Positions 3,282 to 12,359 of a stretch of 18,493 nt of DNA are shown piece after piece. The translations under genes were made by a program, and so were the position numbers. Below the pieces are notes generated by a model, which saw nothing but the letters and a program-made list of their open reading frames with translations, made no database searches and was not told where the DNA came from. How positions within the stretch are numbered: the first letter of the stretch is position 1; each line of letters begins with the position of its first letter. Origin of the DNA: Promethearchaeota archaeon (GTDB lineage: Archaea; Asgardarchaeota; Lokiarchaeia; Sigyniarchaeales; SOKP01); the NCBI GenBank assembly GCA_018238625.1, contig JABCSY010000081.1, positions 1 through 18,493 of the forward strand. Reading direction: 5' to 3'.

Positions 3282-3836
3282 ATGACTGCTAGTAAACTTA
3301 TTTTTGAAAAAATTGAATTAGATTTTAGTTTTAGAGAATTCACATTTCAATCTGGAATTAATAAGCTGGATCGATTTTTCTATGAATATTCAAGCAAATT
3401 TATTAAATATGGTTATTCTCAAGTTTATATTCTAAGGGATGCTGAGACTCCCGATGTAATGGGGTTTTTTTCTCTCTCAAGTTCTACAATTCGATGGGAA
3501 GAGTCTTTAGAAATTGAGAAAATCACTAGATATGTTCCAGGTATTTTATTAGGAATGTTTGCTATTGATGAAAGATTTCGAAGAAAGAAATTTGGTTCGG
3601 ACTTAATAAAAAAAGTAATGAATATTGCTTTAAAATTCTCAAAAGAAATCGGATGTCGATGTGTATTTGTTGATTCATTGACAAAACCAGAGACGATAAA
3701 CTTTTATTTGAATATGGGCTTTAAATTTGTAGATATACCTCTTGGAAAAAGGATCATTAAAAATTTAGCAAATAACGAGAAAATAAAGAGAAGAACTATT
3801 AAAATGTATTTTGACTTGTATAAAATACAAAAATAA
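3282..3836 (+). CDS. GNAT acetyltransferase of the TacT/AtaT toxin-like type
   Basis: F.SG...LD.FF, VMGFFSLS, PGILLGMFAIDERFR...FGSDL, GCRCVFVDS and FY..MGF follow the layout of tRNA-acetylating GNAT toxins. Confidence 0.8.
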   Translation: MTASKLIFEKIELDFSFREFTFQSGINKLDRFFYEYSSKFIKYGYSQVYILRDAETPDVMGFFSLSSSTIRWEESLEIEKITRYVPGILLGMFAIDERFRRKKFGSDLIKKVMNIALKFSKEIGCRCVFVDSLTKPETINFYLNMGFKFVDIPLGKRIIKNLANNEKIKRRTIKMYFDLYKIQK

Positions 3837-4127: not shown

Positions 4128-4613
4128 TTAGAATTCGGTTTTATTTATCCGAATTATTTTTTTAATCATGTTATCAATATTCTCATCAATTATTTTAAGA
4201 ATTTTCTGATAAATCTTATAACTGGCGTAATACGGATCTATAATATCTAAATCTTCAGTTTCTCCGTTAAATTCTTTTAAAGTAAACAATTTTTTACTGA
4301 TGTCGTTAACCCCTTGATAATTTTCTCTAATATCGATAACATGTGACTTTTCCATCGTTATAATTAAGTCTTGTTTTTCCAGCAATTTTCGATCGATTAT
4401 TTGAGGTCGAAAATCAGAGTGTTTGATGCCCCTTGAATTTAAATATTCTTGAGATTCGGGTTGCATGTAAGAAAATGCATTTATAAAACCAGCGCTCTCA
4501 AAAGTTAAATTAACATCATATTTCTTGGCGTAATCTCGTGCTAAGTATTCAGCAGCAGGAGATCTTGCTGTATTGCCTAAACAAATTATTAATATCTTTG
4601 AAATGTCATTCAT
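4128..4613 (-). CDS. Low-molecular-weight protein phosphatase (LMW-PTP/YwlE/ArsC fold)
   Basis: P-loop ICLGNTARSPAAE (CX5R), ESAG, DLIITME and general-acid loop DIIDPYY. Confidence 0.92.
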   Translation of the reverse strand: MNDISKILIICLGNTARSPAAEYLARDYAKKYDVNLTFESAGFINAFSYMQPESQEYLNSRGIKHSDFRPQIIDRKLLEKQDLIITMEKSHVIDIRENYQGVNDISKKLFTLKEFNGETEDLDIIDPYYASYKIYQKILKIIDENIDNMIKKIIRINKTEF

Positions 4614-4704: not shown

Positions 4705-5421
4705 TCATTCATTAGTTTTGCTTAGATTTTTCTTTGTTTCTATGTACATTTTTTTACATAGATAAATATAAAATATTAATTGTATTGTGAAAAGAACAAA
4801 GACAAGGATAATTATTATTATTTTTCCATTTGGTCCATATAAGAGTCCTATAGAATAGATACTAACTATTCCATAAACAATTATCAAAATATTTAGCCAT
4901 TGAATAATGGATCTATATCTTTTATTTATTTTCTGTCCTTCAATAAGAATTTTTTTAGGGTCTTCAACTAATAATTCAAGATGTTGTTCACAAATTGGAA
5001 TTCTAAAAATAATAAAGAAAATAGGCATTCCCAAAAAGATCTTAATTAATTTAGTAATTGCCTTCTTTTTGCAAAAGAAACAGTCTAATTTTTGGAATTC
5101 AATCTTTTTTTTAAAAACATAACGTTCATAACAGGAGAAAAGAATTAAGAGAGAAACCCACCAAATAAAGAAATATGAAGTAAAATCCGTAAAGGTTATA
5201 AAAACAATTAAAAATAAAAAAAAACCAATCGTAACTCTATTAATAAATTGGTAATTAAAATATGTTATAAATCTTAATATTTCTACGCCAAATATTAATA
5301 GGATTGGTAAATAGAAAGCTTGTCTTAGAAGAACTGTAAAAAAAGAGAAATTATTAATTATCTTTTTTTCTGAACTTTTATATGAACCATTTTTTTTATT
5401 GATTTTCATGTCTTTACTCAT
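4705..5421 (-). CDS. Hypothetical multi-pass membrane protein with a CxxC...CxxH putative Zn-binding motif
   Basis: Hydrophobic segments at both ends flank a region containing CFFCKKKA...IPICEQH. Confidence 0.65.
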   Translation of the reverse strand: MSKDMKINKKNGSYKSSEKKIINNFSFFTVLLRQAFYLPILLIFGVEILRFITYFNYQFINRVTIGFFLFLIVFITFTDFTSYFFIWWVSLLILFSCYERYVFKKKIEFQKLDCFFCKKKAITKLIKIFLGMPIFFIIFRIPICEQHLELLVEDPKKILIEGQKINKRYRSIIQWLNILIIVYGIVSIYSIGLLYGPNGKIIIIILVFVLFTIQLIFYIYLCKKMYIETKKNLSKTNE

Positions 5422-5740: not shown

Positions 5741-6427
5741 TTATTTGAGAGAGACCTCTTGCGTTTCTGGATTTCGCACAAAATACCCGGTTGTGCCACA
5801 TTCTTGACAAACTTGAGTATTATCATCAAGAAATAGCATAGATTTCTTGAAACATGTGGGACAGATGAAGTGAATAAGTTCTTGTTCATTTTTCGAGAAC
5901 TCTTTTATCATTTCAATCTTGGGCGTTATGGGAGTCTGAATACAAAACATACAAAAACAGCGTTTTTTCGTGTCTTCAAGGATATCGTTCAATTCGTTTA
6001 GATTTGCATCGCATTCCACCGTTAATTCTAACTTAAAGTTTTCCACCGCATCAATTCCATCCTCAATCCCAAATCCAGTTGTTAGGTCAATGTCCGCAAT
6101 AATTCTTATATCAAGTCGTTTTAATTCTATTTTTCGCATTGCTGCCCATTTGGCAAAAGCAGCAGAGAAACAACCAGCAAAACCGGCTAAACAATAGTGC
6201 ACTGGATGAACGGCAGTACCCCCACCCCCAAGAATAATAGTTTCGTCTGTTTGCACTGTTATTTCACCCGCTCTTTCTGTTCTTAATTTTACTTCGAATT
6301 GTGGGCCATAATCTACTTCTAATCTCCATCTACCATTAATTTCTAAAGATTTTTTACAATTTGATCGATCTTTACGATATGTATCTTGTACTTTCTTAAA
6401 TCCTACTACATCAATTCTGTTTAGCAT
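5741..6427 (-). CDS. OsmC/Ohr-family protein with a C-terminal zinc-ribbon extension
   Basis: TDE..ILGGGGTAVHPVHYCLAGFAGCF, IELKRLDIRI.ADIDL..GFG and distal KRCFCMFC match the OsmC family. The extra tail is CPTC...CQECG. Confidence 0.85.
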   Translation of the reverse strand: MLNRIDVVGFKKVQDTYRKDRSNCKKSLEINGRWRLEVDYGPQFEVKLRTERAGEITVQTDETIILGGGGTAVHPVHYCLAGFAGCFSAAFAKWAAMRKIELKRLDIRIIADIDLTTGFGIEDGIDAVENFKLELTVECDANLNELNDILEDTKKRCFCMFCIQTPITPKIEMIKEFSKNEQELIHFICPTCFKKSMLFLDDNTQVCQECGTTGYFVRNPETQEVSLK

Positions 6428-6439
6428 AGATTTCCCTCT

Positions 6440-6973
6440 TTATAAGATTTCTTTATGCATAGTGTATAATTTTTCTATTATCATCTTAAATCCATTATCT
6501 ACTCCATTTCCTGATTTTGCAGATGTTCTGTGTACTCCTAAATAATTTTCTGTCTCACTTAATTCTTCAAAATTACTTTCATCTATTTCTATATTTCCAA
6601 CTAAATCTATTTTATTTGCAAAAATTATAATCGGAATGTCTTTGCAATACTGATTGATTTCATTATACCATTTCATAACGTTTTTTAAGCTTTCGCTTCC
6701 CTTATCATTTCGTTCTAATGAATAAACTATTATTACTGCTTTACTATCCTCATAGAACGAGGAGCGAATGATTTGGAAATCATCTTGACCGGCTAGATCC
6801 CAGAAGAAAAGCTTAACGTCATCTCCATTTATCTTTTGTTCATAAATAGAAAATTGAGCTCCGATTGTAGAGATATAATCTTCTTGAAATTCTCCTTGAG
6901 TATACTTTTTAATAAGGGAGGTTTTTCCTACTCCACCATCACCTATTACCGTGATCTTAAAAACAAATCTCAT
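6440..6973 (-). CDS. Rab-like small GTPase (Ras superfamily; eukaryotic signature protein)
   Basis: G1 GDGGVGKTS, G2 YISTIG, G3 WDLAGQ, G4 NKID and G5 SAK are present. There is no C-terminal prenylation Cys motif. Confidence 0.95.
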   Translation of the reverse strand: MRFVFKITVIGDGGVGKTSLIKKYTQGEFQEDYISTIGAQFSIYEQKINGDDVKLFFWDLAGQDDFQIIRSSFYEDSKAVIIVYSLERNDKGSESLKNVMKWYNEINQYCKDIPIIIFANKIDLVGNIEIDESNFEELSETENYLGVHRTSAKSGNGVDNGFKMIIEKLYTMHKEIL

Positions 6974-7046
6974 AAAATTCTCTCAATAAATATGATTTAA
7001 ATGTTATTTTATCCATATTATGCTTAAATTCTATATAAAAGTATCC

Positions 7047-7095
7047 ACATAATAGTCAAATTAAATAAAAATTATTTACATAATAGTCAAATTAA
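7047..7095. repeat. Perfect 18-bp direct repeat ACATAATAGTCAAATTAA in the divergent promoter region
   Basis: Copies lie at 7047-7064 and 7078-7095 (31-bp period), next to the TATA-like CTATATAAAA at 7031-7040. Confidence 0.85.
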
Positions 7096-7145
7096 TAAAC
7101 TATACAATTAAATTTTAATCAATGTAATCCTAATGTTGATATATT

Positions 7146-8792
7146 ATGAAAAAGAAATCAGTCAAAGCGAGATTTATCAATACATTCGTTAGAGATGTTG
7201 ATATCTCTAAAGATTCATTTTTTTATTTATTTTTAACGCTATTTGCATTAATTTTAATGGTGGAAGTAACTGTACTCAGATATGTCTTACTAAATGAAAT
7301 AAATGTTATGTTAGAATTTGAAATAATCCTAGCCCTCTTTATAATAGCATTTGGTTTTATTATATCAGGATATTTAGTCGACCGAATAAAGAATAAAACT
7401 AAGAATTTTAACATTATATTCATTGTGTGCATAGTTGGTCTATTTTTAAGTACTTTTAAAAACACTTTCTTTGATCATTTTGGAATATTGATTGTTATAC
7501 TTGGATTAACTCAATTAACTTCTCTGTGGTTTTCTACATTAATTCATAACACAACGATATTAAATAGAGGGCGTATAACTGCATACTTATTAATCCTTTG
7601 CATCGGATCAAGCGTAATTAGCATATTTTTCACTTATTTTGATCTTTTATACAATTTTTTTTTTGTATTTATGGCTATTATTTTATTTTTTATTTATAAA
7701 ATTTCAAAAAAAAATCAATATTTAGAAAACGAAGAACGCTTAGAATCAACAACCAAATTTAAGGAAATAATATTTGAAAAACATTTTTTTAGGTATTCTT
7801 CTAGTTTCTTCGTTTTAAGTTTTATTTTGGGTGATTTAGTAGCAAGATTTACGCTTCAGATAAATTTAATTATTTTTTCAATAGCAACTATACTCTACCT
7901 TGTAGCTGCTGGCTACTTTTTAGATAACATCGGGAGAAAAATATCAATTGTCCTAGGTATACTTCTTCTTTCATTTTTTCTTATCACTTATGGTTCATAT
8001 ATAGAATCGCCAACTATTTTTGGATTACCTCGCGAAGTTTTCCTTTCAATACATTATGCTTTTTCGTTAGCACCACTACTATTAGCCATCTTCACGATCT
8101 CCGGAGATTTTTCGACTGAAAGAGAGAATTTAAGATATAGGGGTCGGATTAATGGACTTTTCATTTCTTTAGTATTTTTTGGTGTCATTTTTGGATTTTT
8201 CTTCAGTCGCACATTAAACCTTTTATATTTATTATATCCTGAATTAAATATTATTATTCCAGATTTTCCAAATAGGTTGAACTCCTTTTTACTGGTAATT
8301 TTACTTGTATGGATGATGGCAATGAAAGAAATTTTAATTTCTAAAGAAAAAAATTGGTCATCAGCAATAATAAATCTTTATGTTTTTAGCGTTAGTGGGG
8401 TTGGGCTTTACAATCATAATTTCAAGAAAAGTGCCCAAGGGGAAGAAAAAGAGAAGAAGAGAGAGATGGATGAAGATATTATTTCTGGTGCATTGACAGG
8501 CGTTGTAGCAATCATTTCTGAAATTACTCAAAGCAAAAAACAGCTAAGGAAAATTGACAAGGAAGGTTATGATCTTCTATTCTCTTTTGGAAAATACCAT
8601 ATTGCCTGCTTAATAACAAAAATAGATTTACCAGTGTTATTAAAGAAACTTGATGAGTTTTCAAAAGATTTTGAAGTAAAGTTCGGGAAGTATCTTAAAA
8701 AGTTTGCTGGAAATGTGTCCCCCTTTGAAGATACTAAGTATTTAGTTGAAAAATACTTCAATCAGAAATATTCTGCTTTATTTGGGGCATAA
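7146..8792 (+). CDS. MFS-type transporter fused to a C-terminal longin/roadblock-like domain
   Basis: About 12 hydrophobic helices, with MFS motif A-like GYLVDRIKNK (from 7368) and GYFLDNIGRK (from 7911) and RGR motifs in both halves. The soluble tail from about 8355 (IINLYVFSVSGVGLY..F, DEDIISGALTGV..IISEI, LLFSFGKYHIACLIT, LLKKLDEFSKDFE.KF...L..F.GNV..F) matches the longin-like domain common in Lokiarchaeia. Confidence 0.78.
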   Translation: MKKKSVKARFINTFVRDVDISKDSFFYLFLTLFALILMVEVTVLRYVLLNEINVMLEFEIILALFIIAFGFIISGYLVDRIKNKTKNFNIIFIVCIVGLFLSTFKNTFFDHFGILIVILGLTQLTSLWFSTLIHNTTILNRGRITAYLLILCIGSSVISIFFTYFDLLYNFFFVFMAIILFFIYKISKKNQYLENEERLESTTKFKEIIFEKHFFRYSSSFFVLSFILGDLVARFTLQINLIIFSIATILYLVAAGYFLDNIGRKISIVLGILLLSFFLITYGSYIESPTIFGLPREVFLSIHYAFSLAPLLLAIFTISGDFSTERENLRYRGRINGLFISLVFFGVIFGFFFSRTLNLLYLLYPELNIIIPDFPNRLNSFLLVILLVWMMAMKEILISKEKNWSSAIINLYVFSVSGVGLYNHNFKKSAQGEEKEKKREMDEDIISGALTGVVAIISEITQSKKQLRKIDKEGYDLLFSFGKYHIACLITKIDLPVLLKKLDEFSKDFEVKFGKYLKKFAGNVSPFEDTKYLVEKYFNQKYSALFGA

Positions 8793-8795
8793 ATG

Positions 8796-9290
8796 TCATT
8801 TTTTATTTAGTTCGATAATTTTATCAATGGATTTAATTATTGCATCTTCGATTCTTTTAAGAACTTTATTATATTCATTTTCCTCCAAATAGAAAGGATC
8901 TTCTATTTCTATATTTTCAATTTCACCAGCAAATTCTAATAGTAAAAAGACCTTTTCATCCAGATCCTTTAAATGCTTAAATTTTCTTTTCAGTTTTCGA
9001 ACATGATATTTCTCTTCAAAACATAGAATAAGGTCTTGATTGATTATCAATACATCATCGACATCCTTGGCTTGAAAATCGTCCATTTCAACACCTTTAG
9101 ATTTAAGATATTTAAGCGTGCCATCTTGAGGTTGCTCATAATAGTGATATATTCCTGCCGAATCAAACGCTATATTTTTTAATTCGTCTTTATATATCGT
9201 TTGTTGCAACCATTTTGCATAATATTCAGCAAATGGTGACCTGCAGGTATTACCACTACATAAAAAAAGGATGTTTTTAATTTTAGGCAT
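8796..9290 (-). CDS. Low-molecular-weight protein phosphatase, YwlE (arginine phosphatase)-like
   Basis: ILFLCSGNTCRSPFAE, FDSAG, DLILCFE and IEDPF. Confidence 0.92.
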   Translation of the reverse strand: MPKIKNILFLCSGNTCRSPFAEYYAKWLQQTIYKDELKNIAFDSAGIYHYYEQPQDGTLKYLKSKGVEMDDFQAKDVDDVLIINQDLILCFEEKYHVRKLKRKFKHLKDLDEKVFLLLEFAGEIENIEIEDPFYLEENEYNKVLKRIEDAIIKSIDKIIELNKK

Positions 9291-9400: not shown

Positions 9401-10710
9401 ATTTACACCCTCTCCTTTATTTTAAGTGTAAATGTCTATTGAAACACATAGGAATGAGACTTACCGAACAAATCCAGATAAAAAAGACAGCAAACCTCTC
9501 GTGCTTATGCCATTTATCCAAAAATCTCTATAATGTGGCAAATTATTACGTGAGGCAAGAATTGTTTTATTTAGGAAACTGGTTAAGATATTACGATTTG
9601 TGGTATATATTAAAAGATAAAGAGGCTTACAAGAAACTTCCCTCGCAAACAGCTCAACAGATATTAAGGTTAATTGATAAGAATTGGAAATCGTTTTTTA
9701 ATTCCCTTAAAAATTGGAAGGTACAACCAAGAAATTATCAAAATCGCCCTAAACCTCCAAAGTATAAGAAGAAGAACGGAGAATTCTTACTTATTTTCAC
9801 TAATCAACAATGTCGAATCAAGGAGGGTTATTTATATTTTCCTGAAAAAGTAGCCATATCTCAAATAAAAACGCGCATTAAAAGTCAATTGCGTCAGGTA
9901 AGGCTCGTTCCTAAGGGATTATATTACATTGTAGAGATTATATACGAGGAAGATGTAAAAAATCTAAAGTTAGATAAAAAAAGAATTTTAGGGATTGATT
10001 TAGGCTTAGCCAATATCGTAACTATGGTAAATAATGTCGGACTACAACCTGCAATTATTAAAGGCGGTATTGCGAAGTCCACTAATCAATTCTACAACAA
10101 ACAATTAGCAAGGTATAAAAGCGTTAAAGATAAGAGTGGGATCGCGTTTGAAACGAGAAGAATTCAGAAGCTAACTAAAAAGCGAAATAACAAAATTAAC
10201 GACCAATTTCACAAAATTTCAAGAAGAATTATTAATTATTGTGTCTATAATAATCTTGGAACGATAATTATCGGGTATAATCAATTCTGGAAACAAGAAG
10301 TAAACATGGGTCGTATAAATAACCAAAAATTTGTTCAACTTCCTTATTTCAAATTGATTTTTCAAATTCAATACAAAGCCAAATTAGTAGGAATCGATGT
10401 TATCTTAGAAAAGGAATCTTACACTTCTAAATGCAGTTTTTTAGATAACGAATCCATTCAAAAACACAAAAATTATGCCGGAAAGAGAATTAACAGAGGG
10501 CTATTTCGAAGTAAGAAAGGAATTATCTTAAACGCCGATGTCAACGCGGGGTATAATATAATTAAGAAGGTAATCCCAAATGCCGTATTGGTTGATGGGA
10601 TAGAGGGTGTAGGGTTATATCCGTATTCTATTGCTGTTTCATAGTTAAAAAATTTAATAGAATAAAATTTTAATTCCATGAAGGAAAATTAAAAATAACC
10701 TTCCGTTCAA
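9401..10710 (+). mobile_element. Solo tnpB (IS1341-like) element of the IS200/IS605-IS607 superfamily; ends approximate
   Basis: tnpB has no tnpA next to it. The inverted repeat ATTTACAC/GTGTAAAT (9401-9408/9426-9433) lies upstream. The hairpin GAAGG/CCTTC (10680-10703) followed by TTCAA (10706-10710) lies downstream. Confidence 0.55.
9439..10644 (+). CDS. tnpB: TnpB RNA-guided endonuclease (ATG at 9454 is an alternative start)
   Basis: SKNLYN.ANY, LPSQTAQQ, RuvC-I GIDLG, HKISR.II, IIIGYN..WKQ, YKAKL.GI, ESYTSK, RGLF, RuvC-III NADVNAGYNI and the C-terminal DGIEGVG..P. Confidence 0.95.
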   Translation: MKHIGMRLTEQIQIKKTANLSCLCHLSKNLYNVANYYVRQELFYLGNWLRYYDLWYILKDKEAYKKLPSQTAQQILRLIDKNWKSFFNSLKNWKVQPRNYQNRPKPPKYKKKNGEFLLIFTNQQCRIKEGYLYFPEKVAISQIKTRIKSQLRQVRLVPKGLYYIVEIIYEEDVKNLKLDKKRILGIDLGLANIVTMVNNVGLQPAIIKGGIAKSTNQFYNKQLARYKSVKDKSGIAFETRRIQKLTKKRNNKINDQFHKISRRIINYCVYNNLGTIIIGYNQFWKQEVNMGRINNQKFVQLPYFKLIFQIQYKAKLVGIDVILEKESYTSKCSFLDNESIQKHKNYAGKRINRGLFRSKKGIILNADVNAGYNIIKKVIPNAVLVDGIEGVGLYPYSIAVS

Positions 10711-10808: not shown

Positions 10809-12359
10809 TTGATAATCGGAGGAGGCATTTCTGGCCTATCTTTAGCCATTAACTTAGCAGATATGGTTCCTGAGGAGGATATATTATTAATTACCAAAGA
10901 AAAATTATCAGAATGCAACACTTTTTATGCCCAAGGTGGAATCGCATGCGTGCGGGGCAAGAATGATAATTTTGAGAAACACATTCAAGACACATTGATC
11001 GCAGGGGATGGGCTTTGTGATGAAGAGGTTGTAAGGTTAATTGTATCAAAAGCGCCTGAAAGAATTGATCAATTAATTGAGATGGGAGTTGAATTCTCAA
11101 GGAATAACGAGGGGGAATATGATCTTGGAAAAGAAGGTGGTCACTCTGAAAGAAGAGTTCTTCACGTAAATGATTTAACAGGGCAGAATATAGAGCTTAA
11201 GCTTATCGAAAGAGTAAAAAAAATTCCAAATCTTCAAATTAAAGAAAATTGGTGTGCGATCAATTTATTCTGTAATAATTTTAGATGTGATGGCGCTTAC
11301 GTATTGGATCAAGAGAGCGAAGAGATTTACAATATTTCTGCTAAATCTACAATATTAGCAACTGGTGGTGCCGGTAAAATTTATCTTTATACCACAAATC
11401 CAGATGTCGCTTCTGGAGATGGGATTGCAATGGCATATCGTGCTGGAGCGATAATTGCTAATATGGAGTTTTATCAATTTCATCCAACTTGCCTTTATCA
11501 CCCATTTGCTAAATCGTTCTTGATAACAGAAGCCATGAGAGGTGAAGGTGCTGTTTTAAAAGATATTAAAGGCGATGAATTTATGGAAAAATATCATCCT
11601 TTAAAGGAATTAGCACCACGAGATATTGTATCACGGGCAATTGATAGAGAACTTAAACGAACTGGAGATGACCACGTAGTATTAGATTTTGCATCGTATA
11701 GAAGTCCCGACTTTATTAAAAGTCATTTTCCAGGTGTTTACGAACAATGTAAATTGTTTAATATCGACATTACTAAAGACCCAATACCCGTTGTCCCAGC
11801 GGCTCATTATAGTTGTGGAGGCGTGCTTGTCAAAGTAAATGGTTCTACAAAAGTTAAAAACCTCTACACAATTGGAGAATCATCTTGTACGGGATTACAT
11901 GGAGCTAATCGATTAGCAAGTAATTCTTTATTAGAAGGATTAGTATGCGCGTATGAATGTGCTAAAACACTTGCAAAAAAGTCGAAAGATCTGAAAATCA
12001 CCGTATTTAAAGAATGGGAACCTGGTCATGCCGTACCCTCTACAGAAGCGGTTATAATAACACAGAATTGGGACGAAATAAGAAGATTCATGTGGAATTA
12101 CGTTGGAATTGTCCGAACGGATAAGCGTCTTCAAAGAGCTAAAAAAAGAATTAATATGCTTCTGGACGAGATCAATCAATATTATTGGGATTTTAAAATA
12201 GAAAAAAATCTTGTTGAACTTAGAAATTTGGCTACTGTCGCAAAAATAATAATAGTGAGTGGAATAAGCAGGAAGGAGAGCAGGGGAATCCATTACAATT
12301 TAGATCATCCAAACAAATCTGAAATGAGTAGAGCTACTACAATAAGAAGACCTTGGTAA
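10809..12359 (+). CDS. nadB: L-aspartate oxidase (NAD biosynthesis); the true start is probably further upstream
   Basis: IIGGGISG, TFYAQGGI, EGGHS.RR.LH, QFHPT, LITEA.RGEG, ELAPRDIV, PAAHYSCGG, GLHGANRLASNSLLE and RKESRG.H. Confidence 0.95.
   Translation: MIIGGGISGLSLAINLADMVPEEDILLITKEKLSECNTFYAQGGIACVRGKNDNFEKHIQDTLIAGDGLCDEEVVRLIVSKAPERIDQLIEMGVEFSRNNEGEYDLGKEGGHSERRVLHVNDLTGQNIELKLIERVKKIPNLQIKENWCAINLFCNNFRCDGAYVLDQESEEIYNISAKSTILATGGAGKIYLYTTNPDVASGDGIAMAYRAGAIIANMEFYQFHPTCLYHPFAKSFLITEAMRGEGAVLKDIKGDEFMEKYHPLKELAPRDIVSRAIDRELKRTGDDHVVLDFASYRSPDFIKSHFPGVYEQCKLFNIDITKDPIPVVPAAHYSCGGVLVKVNGSTKVKNLYTIGESSCTGLHGANRLASNSLLEGLVCAYECAKTLAKKSKDLKITVFKEWEPGHAVPSTEAVIITQNWDEIRRFMWNYVGIVRTDKRLQRAKKRINMLLDEINQYYWDFKIEKNLVELRNLATVAKIIIVSGISRKESRGIHYNLDHPNKSEMSRATTIRRPW

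Follow-up and report, generated by a model that had tools for sequence, protein, structure and literature searches.

Do a membrane carrier that ends in a longin domain and a Rab-like small GTPase, encoded head-to-head in an Asgard archaeon, form a single signalling system? The question is raised by an AT-rich stretch of 18,493 nucleotides (hereafter, the window) of contig JABCSY010000081.1, assembly GCA_018238625.1, from a Promethearchaeota archaeon, in which the gene for a major facilitator superfamily (MFS) protein with a longin tail (P0001) is transcribed divergently from a GTPase gene (P0002), and for which a first-pass annotation had proposed such a system. We find that P0001 is a genuine, conserved and unusual protein, in which a TRAPP-like longin tail follows an MFS carrier and the strongest constraint falls on the cytoplasmic face, and that P0002 is most likely not its specific partner. 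The joint explanation that accounts best for these results, to which we assign a probability of about 0.62, combines a conserved MFS-longin family, the insertion of a GTPase-OsmC unit beside one of its members, and a longin tail that would serve as a platform, either for dimerization or for a partner whose gene lies at another locus. P0001 and its parts lie in the window as follows:

7146..8792, + strand: MFS-longin fusion gene (P0001), an open reading frame (ORF) of 548 amino acids (aa), modelled at full length by AlphaFold2 (AF2) with 12 transmembrane (TM) helices and a longin domain
7146..8330, + strand: predicted MFS-fold membrane domain, residues 1-395, from AF2 helices and Foldseek matches, with the cytoplasmic loops most conserved
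8340..8789, + strand: predicted cytoplasmic C-terminal tail, residues ~399-548, with the longin core at residues ~408-545 (8367-8780)

An MFS fold joined to a longin domain

The membrane part of P0001 is predicted to adopt the MFS fold and may be a carrier or a carrier-derived anchor in the cytoplasmic membrane. The full-length AF2 model (predicted local distance difference test, pLDDT, 78.5; predicted template modelling score, pTM, 0.69) spreads 12 long helices over residues 22-391, divided by a central loop (190-211), and after the last helix a short conserved linker leads into the longin domain; a hydropathy scan recovers 11 segments, as against the 12 helices of the model. Foldseek gave 248 matches to this model at E ≤ 1e-3, every top row being a solved MFS carrier (SV2A, NorA, VMAT1/2, LmrP, YajR, MCT8 and URAT1 are among them), and VMAT2 gave the highest target-normalized template modelling score, 0.70. 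The MFS motif A, with the consensus G-x-x-x-D-[RK]-x-G-R-[RK], is expected in loops 2-3 and 8-9. In the C-terminal half (loop 8-9) it is canonical, G256..D260-N-I-G263-R264-K265, and G256, D260, G263, R264 and K265 are invariant in the 34 full-length sequences of our alignment A1 (a second alignment, A2, holds 30 tail sequences from related loci); in the N-terminal half (loop 2-3) it is degenerate, G75..D79-R-I-K-N-K, with D79 invariant and the G-R-K part eroded. The initial description of a complete MFS domain with motif A in both halves is therefore sound as to the 12-helix fold and only partly so as to the motif, whose N-terminal copy is partial. Many homologues of P0001 carry a precomputed match to Pfam MFS_1 (PF07690).

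The tail, judged from its model, is a cytoplasmic, TRAPP/sybindin-like longin domain. Modelled alone (AF2; pLDDT 72.1, pTM 0.72), it has the longin topology beta-beta-alpha-beta-beta-beta-alpha-alpha (DSSP: E10-17, E22-27, H45-63, E71-74, E77-83, E87-93, H98-120, H129-140), and the order of its elements is identical in the full-length model. Foldseek against the PDB returned 50 matches at E ≤ 1e-3, headed by yeast Trs23 (3cue_A, E 3.6e-5), with 3cue_C at a template modelling score of 0.60-0.63 and further matches to Bet5, TRAPPC1, AP sigma subunits, MglB, Mon1/Ccz1, Fuzzy and LAMTOR. VIA-align, which is independent of Foldseek, gave Z-scores of 11.8 for Fuzzy, 11.3 for Sec22, 10.8 for TRAPPC1 and VAMP7, and 10.6 for Bet5 and Mon1-Ccz1, and its best 50 rows are all longin, roadblock, SRX, AP-sigma/mu or profilin folds. 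Matches in the ESM Atlas (scores 0.85-0.90), to unnamed archaeal clusters and to one 'Roadblock/LAMTOR2' cluster, are a lead only. Because Foldseek returned MFS carriers for the membrane part and longin structures for the tail, the earlier description of P0001, with its soluble, longin/roadblock-like tail of about 145 aa, stands as correct.

Among known systems, the tail most resembles the TRAPP subunits Bet5/TRAPPC1 and Trs23/TRAPPC4 (Sybindin, PF04099; 3CUE, 2J3T, 7B6D, 7E2C), which share its longin topology, are its best Foldseek matches (VIA-align Z 10.6-10.8) and supply its sole sequence-level matches. These are weak: Sybindin is reached at E 1e-3, and a profile search of PDB sequences with the tail gave Trs23 (E 0.0098) and TRAPPC1 (E 0.21) as the only meaningful matches. 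However, the TRAPP subunits are soluble and sit in a multi-subunit Rab guanine nucleotide exchange factor, flanked by Bet3-type subunits, whereas the predicted longin domain of P0001 is the C-terminus of a polytopic protein and falls below the family cut-offs. Asgard longin and roadblock structures are likewise similar to the tail, with VIA-align Z-scores of 9.4 for 8YQG (the Lokiarchaeial longin 8yqg_B), 10.2 for 9JUE and 9.8 for 7F8M.

The P0001 ORF and its N-terminus are conserved across A1, and the mean frequency of the top residue is 0.84 in the cytoplasmic loops (68 positions), 0.61 in the TM helices, 0.45 in the outer loops and 0.66 in the longin domain. Loops 4-5 (0.94) and 10-11 (0.93) are the most conserved of the cytoplasmic loops, and helix alpha-1 of the longin domain reaches 0.82. 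At a threshold of 80%, the TM helices of these 34 sequences contain no conserved acidic residue or Lys, and their conserved charged or titratable residues are limited to two: R216, where TM7 begins on the cytoplasmic side, and H303, within TM10.

Distribution and gene neighbourhood of the family

The family to which P0001 belongs is a conserved Asgard MFS-longin fusion, centred on Promethearchaeia/Lokiarchaeia. A word-indexed search yielded 128 homologues; among the 120 matches listed, most are of ~533-558 aa, with a query coverage of 98-100%, and identities to P0001 run from 86% down to 37%. Their sources are labelled Promethearchaeota, Promethearchaeia or Lokiarchaeia, plus some Thor-, Hod-, Hermod- and Odinarchaeota. 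The genome collection holds 49 loci of the family, the nearest of them (95% identical) from a metagenome-assembled genome of Promethearchaeia, a class within the Asgard kingdom Promethearchaeati. All members are Asgard except for one record, L027 (DATKTW010000003.1), in which an Asgard-type block of low-molecular-weight phosphotyrosine phosphatase (LMW-PTP), MFS-longin, LMW-PTP and NadB stands under the title Candidatus Nanopelagicaceae bacterium; the bacterial title is probably a binning or labelling error.

Gene order was compared by tblastn of the window's genes on the 49 loci, with a tally of the nearest gene on either side; a locus was evaluable upstream if at least 800 bp were present, and L049, whose match is shorter than 60 aa, was left out. 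Upstream of the MFS-longin gene, the nearest gene is an LMW-PTP in 33 of 41 evaluable loci, a GTPase in 2 (L001, L004) and none of the window's genes in 6. Downstream, an LMW-PTP is nearest in 35 of 44, none of the window's genes in 7, and the hydrophobic protein hyp238 and NadB in one each. The gene block as a whole reads 3HCDH - hyp185 - Macro - LMW-PTP - [MFS-longin x1-2] - LMW-PTP - NadB - DeoC, with 3HCDH found in 18 of the 49 loci, hyp185 in 25, Macro in 23, NadB in 31 and DeoC in 13. The two phosphatase genes are present in the window:

4128..4613, - strand: LMW-PTP (Pfam LMWPc 2.6e-24; CX5R-S loop, DP motif), the divergent upstream neighbour of the MFS-longin gene in relatives
8796..9290, - strand: LMW-PTP (Pfam LMWPc 1.3e-22), the convergent downstream neighbour, with 3 bp between the stop codons

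Besides the window, only L001, L004/L051 and L050 (the last from a further genome, G005) have the Rab-like GTPase next to the MFS-longin gene. GTPases are not enriched around the family either: ORFs matching a profile of the window genome's own GTPases lie within ~5 kb of the gene in 4 of 49 loci (464,648 bases), against ~9.5 expected from the density in the window genome (88 GTPases per 4.29 Mb). That genome has 74 Ras-family matches and 88 GTPases among 3850 called ORFs, and of its 16 proteins with the tail domain only P0001 has a GTPase as its immediate neighbour, where ~0.7 would be expected. The adjacency of P0001 and P0002 is real, yet no more than chance predicts. The proposal that carrier and GTPase form a system consequently finds no footing in gene order, for across the Asgard relatives the two are not co-located (2 of 41 loci), GTPases are not enriched, and the relatives of P0002 lie beside OsmC, as described below.

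Tandem MFS-longin paralogues occur in 13 loci (L010, L012, L013, L014, L016, L017, L018, L020, L022, L029, L030, L034 and L036); they are ~46-55% identical to P0001 and sit between the same two LMW-PTP genes, and the window genome is single-copy. Loci that lack LMW-PTP genes belong to sister subfamilies (57% and 37% identity), whose neighbours include HAD, SDR and M29 genes; a metagenome scan for the 37%-identity subfamily added one member only (L058).

In all seven sister-subfamily loci examined, the MFS-longin gene is followed downstream, at 0.2-3.5 kb, by a gene orthologous to one Roadblock/LC7 protein (64-94% identity), in two arrangements. The window genome encodes roughly nine roadblock proteins, and its orthologue of this one (72% identity) is on another contig, C136, beside Rpb7-like, DUF359, S24e and Kae1 genes. 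An older link between the MFS-longin family and a roadblock protein is hinted at by this recurrence, which is no proof of it. The positions are:

Roadblock/LC7 gene: L046:6985-7356, L047:6758-7120, L058:1934-2239, L037:5946-6317, L025:9688-10053, L008:7087-7452, L007:9713-10078

Origin of the GTPase-OsmC unit

The genes on the other side of the P0001 promoter, and the spacer itself, are:

6440..6973, - strand: Rab-like small GTPase (P0002), 177 aa (Pfam Ras 9.7e-41), first gene of the inserted GTPase-OsmC unit
5741..6427, - strand: OsmC-like protein, 228 aa (Pfam OsmC 5.8e-15), with two C-terminal CxxC pairs
6974..7145, no strand: divergent spacer of 172 bp, of which the MFS-proximal ~100 bp are the MFS gene's own promoter region

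P0002 matches Pfam Ras with 139.5 bits (cut-off 21.6), and its G1-G5 motifs (GDGGVGKT, T36, WDLAGQ, NKID and SAK) are intact and conserved in 9 relatives; its C-terminus, which ends ...TMHKEIL, has no prenylation Cys. The first-pass annotation was right on both points, and also on the divergent transcription across a 172-bp spacer, as the ORFs at 7146..8792 (+) and 6440..6973 (-) confirm. The OsmC-like gene begins 12 bp beyond the GTPase stop and is probably co-transcribed with the GTPase gene.

When 31 related genomes were searched with P0002, copies at 78-79% identity appeared only in G005 (L050) and G015 (L051, the same contig as L004), both with the order OsmC - GTPase - MFS-longin - LMWPc - NadB, like the window. 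The next tier of copies is at 58-61%. In four of its six contexts (L052, L053, L054 and L057, from G002, G016, G014 and G030; 58-60% identity) the 6-10 kb retrieved contain, besides the GTPase gene, a nearby OsmC orthologue (56-72% identity) and lack an MFS-longin gene; the contexts in G017 and G018 hold neither OsmC nor an MFS-longin gene. Because OsmC recurs near relatives of the GTPase that have no MFS-longin gene close by, the GTPase travels with OsmC and not with the carrier. This recurrence, in different gene orders, and the two CxxC pairs of the OsmC-like protein suggest a redox-related functional pair of GTPase and OsmC.

The promoter region of the MFS gene bears on the same point. The ~100 bp upstream of the MFS start align between the GTPase-type loci and L005, a locus with an LMW-PTP upstream, and this region thus predates the insertion. 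Since the GTPase is absent from most loci, travels with OsmC and faces an older MFS promoter, the GTPase-OsmC unit is a lineage-specific insertion into the collinear block, confined to one shallow sublineage (the window genome and three close relatives). Among the four GTPase-type loci (window, L001, L004, L050) the spacer is 86% conserved.

The order of the two genes varies: in the window the GTPase is followed by OsmC, in G002, G016 and G014 OsmC is followed by a ~1.2-kb gene or gap and then the GTPase, and in G030 OsmC directly precedes the GTPase. The spacer also contains a 28-nt direct repeat (7037-7064 and 7068-7095, 89% identity), and the matching site in the spacers of relatives (L001, L004, L050, L005) is a conserved inverted repeat, TTTACAGAAnTGTAAA, upstream of the TATA-like ATTAAATTT. 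The inverted repeat may be a binding site for a regulator, a candidate whose right arm is altered in the window.

The longin module on other proteins

In the window genome, the tail profile matches 17 places, which correspond to 16 called proteins, 8 of them with at least five hydrophobic segments; no protein of this genome joins the tail module to a GTPase domain. Searched against 1.84 billion cluster representatives, the profile retrieved 1520 clusters (50% identity) at E ≤ 1e-3 and 494 at E ≤ 1e-10. These numbers, and the 74 Ras-family matches given above, justify a caution voiced at the outset, that Loki membrane proteins often bear longin tails and that GTPases abound.

Classes were counted among the matches listed, which are 149 of the 1520 clusters; a 150th, itself a member of the P0001 family, was left out of the count. 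Within this set, 53 clusters are proteins of 450-700 aa with at least nine hydrophobic segments and 48 are proteins of 250-450 aa with 4-8, and one to three segments are found in 21 of 28 proteins below 250 aa and in 9 of 11 above 700 aa. MFS_1 matches 24 of 30 sampled 12-TM longin-tailed proteins (7 above cut-off) and 2 of 26 sampled proteins of 250-450 aa; similarly, the TM profile of the window's family matches 36 of 57 longin-tailed proteins in the 450-700-aa range and, in the 250-450-aa range, 3 of 53. The tail module thus sits on diverse polytopic proteins, and the MFS-longin fusion is therefore one large branch of a wider theme, that of a membrane protein with a C-terminal longin domain. 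One of the 149 clusters is of another kind: its representative, P0263 (557 aa), combines a Ras-family GTPase (5-171), a degenerate GTPase-like region (254-350) and the same longin module (427-556), and it is a natural (Rosetta-stone) fusion that links this longin subfamily to small GTPases.

We also considered whether the 6-7-TM longin-tailed class is a half-MFS of the P0001 family and rejected this, as the three matches among 53 to the TM profile are apparently fragments. Tandem genes of the 6-7-TM class are present in the window genome on contigs C175 and C109.

Possible roles of the longin tail

Eukaryotic Rabs and Arfs are held at membranes by lipid anchors, which Asgard small GTPases, to our knowledge, do not have. 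Whether these GTPases work at membranes, and by what means, is a standing question in eukaryogenesis, to which a large conserved class of integral membrane proteins with a cytoplasmic GTPase-platform fold is a concrete candidate answer, addressable through one soluble domain of 150 residues. Lokiarchaeum is reported to have 41 longin-like and 38 roadblock domains, some of them fused to GTPases (PMC4917890, citing Klinger 2016), and Asgard roadblock and longin proteins dimerize like their eukaryotic counterparts, the dimers being GTPase platforms (PMC10933270, Tran 2024). The forms described there are, unlike P0001, soluble proteins or GTPase fusions, and a term search found 'transmembrane', 'membrane protein' and 'transporter' nowhere in the main text of PMC10933270. 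The asCOG preprint counts 130 roadblock-superfamily asCOGs and stresses domain shuffling. We found no MFS-longin fusion described in the literature on Asgard longin and roadblock proteins, as far as its accessible text extends; the asCOG supplementary tables may list one.

In the explanation that we prefer, the MFS domain would lie in the cytoplasmic membrane as a carrier or carrier-derived anchor, and the functional centre of the protein would be its cytoplasmic face, made up of five very highly conserved loops and the longin domain. The longin domain would act as a docking or regulatory platform, to which a soluble protein from another locus (a small GTPase, a roadblock protein or a longin protein) would bind and so be held at the membrane; alternatively, the longin domain might dimerize and gate the carrier. 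We infer that a platform of this sort is the most likely mechanism for the tail.

The model with which the locus was first read, a dedicated transceptor module in which the tail binds and anchors the divergent GTPase and couples solute occupancy to its nucleotide state, now appears very improbable. It would account for the head-to-head layout and the 172-bp spacer, which are kept in three related genomes (L001, L004/L051, L050), and it is in keeping with a tail of the fold that TRAPP, Mon1-Ccz1 and MglB use for GTPase binding, with a GTPase that has no lipid-anchor cysteine, and with the existence of P0263, in which a Ras GTPase is fused to the same longin module. However, 39 of the 41 evaluable loci have no adjacent GTPase, GTPases occur near the family in 4 of 49 loci where ~9.5 would be expected, the relatives of P0002 associate with OsmC rather than with MFS-longin genes, and the MFS promoter region is older than the insertion. 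In MK-D1, moreover, GTPase genes are generally outside operons with roadblock, longin or TRAPPC3 genes, as PMC10933270 reports, and the recent insertion of the GTPase at our locus fits a remark there that Asgard GTPase-regulator pairs are not readable from gene order. To that extent the locus is cautionary: its striking head-to-head GTPase is a recent arrival. A regulatory role confined to the carrier itself is possible, if doubtful. The tail would then be a purely intramolecular or oligomerization regulator of an ordinary MFS carrier, docking on the loops or dimerizing carriers to gate transport, with no GTPase involved. The cytoplasmic loops (0.84) and longin alpha-1 (0.82) are the most conserved elements, as expected of an intramolecular interface, the family has no GTPase synteny, and paralogue pairs stand in tandem in 13 loci, longin domains being able to dimerize (PMC10933270). 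Another MFS carrier with a tail, Escherichia coli YajR (3WDO), is among the structural matches and resembles P0001 in that its 12-TM MFS core, which contains motif A, precedes a small alpha/beta domain on the cytoplasmic side, although the Foldseek alignment has an identity of 12%. The C-terminal YAM domain of YajR has a ferredoxin-like fold and is not known to be linked to GTPases, and its role would be comparable to such autoregulation. What speaks against a role of this kind is that the same module is found on unrelated 6-7-TM proteins, single-pass giants and a Ras GTPase, which argues for a portable, partner-binding module and not for a carrier-specific gate.

The flanking phosphatases could be the partners instead, by dephosphorylating the carrier or its tail or by acting on a phosphorylated transported substrate, an alternative that we regard as distinctly unlikely. 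Both have the CX5R(S) loop and the DP motif, they adjoin the carrier gene on its upstream side (33 of 41 loci) and on its downstream side (35 of 44) and stay outermost where that gene is tandemly duplicated, and two residues of the central loop of P0001, Tyr192 and Tyr217, are invariant and would be putative phosphorylation sites. Yet their divergent and convergent orientations mean that they are not co-transcribed with the carrier gene, 6-7 sister-subfamily loci lack them, and, because many of these genomes share the gene order of the entire region (3HCDH, hyp185, Macro, NadB, DeoC), their adjacency may be inherited gene order. A further and wider proposal is that MFS-longin proteins and other longin-tailed polytopic proteins are Asgard membrane-resident GTPase platforms, which recruit anchor-less GTPases and couple their nucleotide state to carrier conformation. 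The longin domain would in that case work as a homodimer, as a heterodimer of the tandem paralogues (13 loci) or paired with a roadblock protein, and the window's sublineage could have recruited the Rab-like GTPase, once inserted, as a client. The spread of the module over polytopic proteins, together with the one Ras fusion, leaves room for a generic, putatively membrane-anchored GTPase/roadblock platform; in its full form, we consider the proposal rather unlikely. If it were true, P0001 would represent a one-chain archaeal forerunner of transporter-Ragulator-Rag or of membrane-bound TRAPP-type signalling. The system closest in concept is eukaryotic lysosomal amino-acid sensing by SLC38A9-Ragulator-Rag, in which a small GTPase is under the control of a roadblock/longin platform physically coupled to a transporter. 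The fold of SLC38A9 is of the APC/LeuT type, and its N-terminal tail binds the separate Ragulator and Rag proteins; P0001, in contrast, is an MFS protein with the platform fold fused to it, and P0002 is a single Rab-like domain, with no C-terminal roadblock and no Rag heterodimer, so that any likeness would be functional only.

Several observations weigh against the joint explanation of a conserved fusion, an inserted GTPase and a longin platform. P0001 misses the Pfam MFS_1 cut-off of 33.4 bits, scoring 22.5 bits at full length and 24.8 bits when restricted to residues 1-399, and its tail misses that of Sybindin (25 bits) with 19.6 bits at E 1e-3 over the last 149 residues; the models, too, are of medium confidence, with a tail pLDDT of 72 that is lower inside the full-length model. 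An MFS domain without conserved buried charges could be one that performs no transport at all. P0002 may still be a partner within the GTPase-carrying sublineage, and the conservation of the spacer would be compatible with a newly evolved, co-regulated pair. In the window genome, 6 of the 16 tail-domain proteins have a GTPase within four genes, against ~2.7 expected, a weak excess. Finally, the conserved LMW-PTP flanks may carry a function, which is inseparable here from general collinearity.

Other genes of the block

The remaining genes around the MFS-longin gene are:

3282..3836, + strand: GNAT acetyltransferase, a lineage-specific insert found in 0 of 49 loci
4705..5421, - strand: hydrophobic protein hyp238, 238 aa, family unknown, a lineage-specific insert found in 1 of 49 loci (L011)
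9439..10644, + strand: TnpB/OrfB_IS605-type gene (Pfam OrfB_IS605 and Cas12f1-like TNB) between LMW-PTP and nadB, found in 0 of 49 loci
10809..12359, + strand: L-aspartate oxidase NadB (NCBIfam NF006567, 708 bits, cut-off 629), found in 31 of 49 loci

Because the TnpB gene is absent from all 49 related loci, it represents a recent mobile-element insertion, and since GNAT, TnpB and hyp238 occur in 0, 0 and 1 of these loci, the block in the window has gained several inserts, the GTPase-OsmC unit among them. The two flanking LMWPc genes were also assessed as arsenate reductases (ArsC), an assignment that we rejected: both have the DP motif, neither shows the cysteine pattern of ArsC, one has a single Cys, and the NCBIfam ArsC model gives ~29 bits against a cut-off of 174. 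A theme of NAD or ADP-ribose transport, prompted by the neighbouring Macro and NadB genes, was set aside as well, both genes being part of the long collinear block. For hyp238, Pfam and NCBIfam returned no match, and its homologue in L011 lies on the opposite side of the MFS-longin gene.

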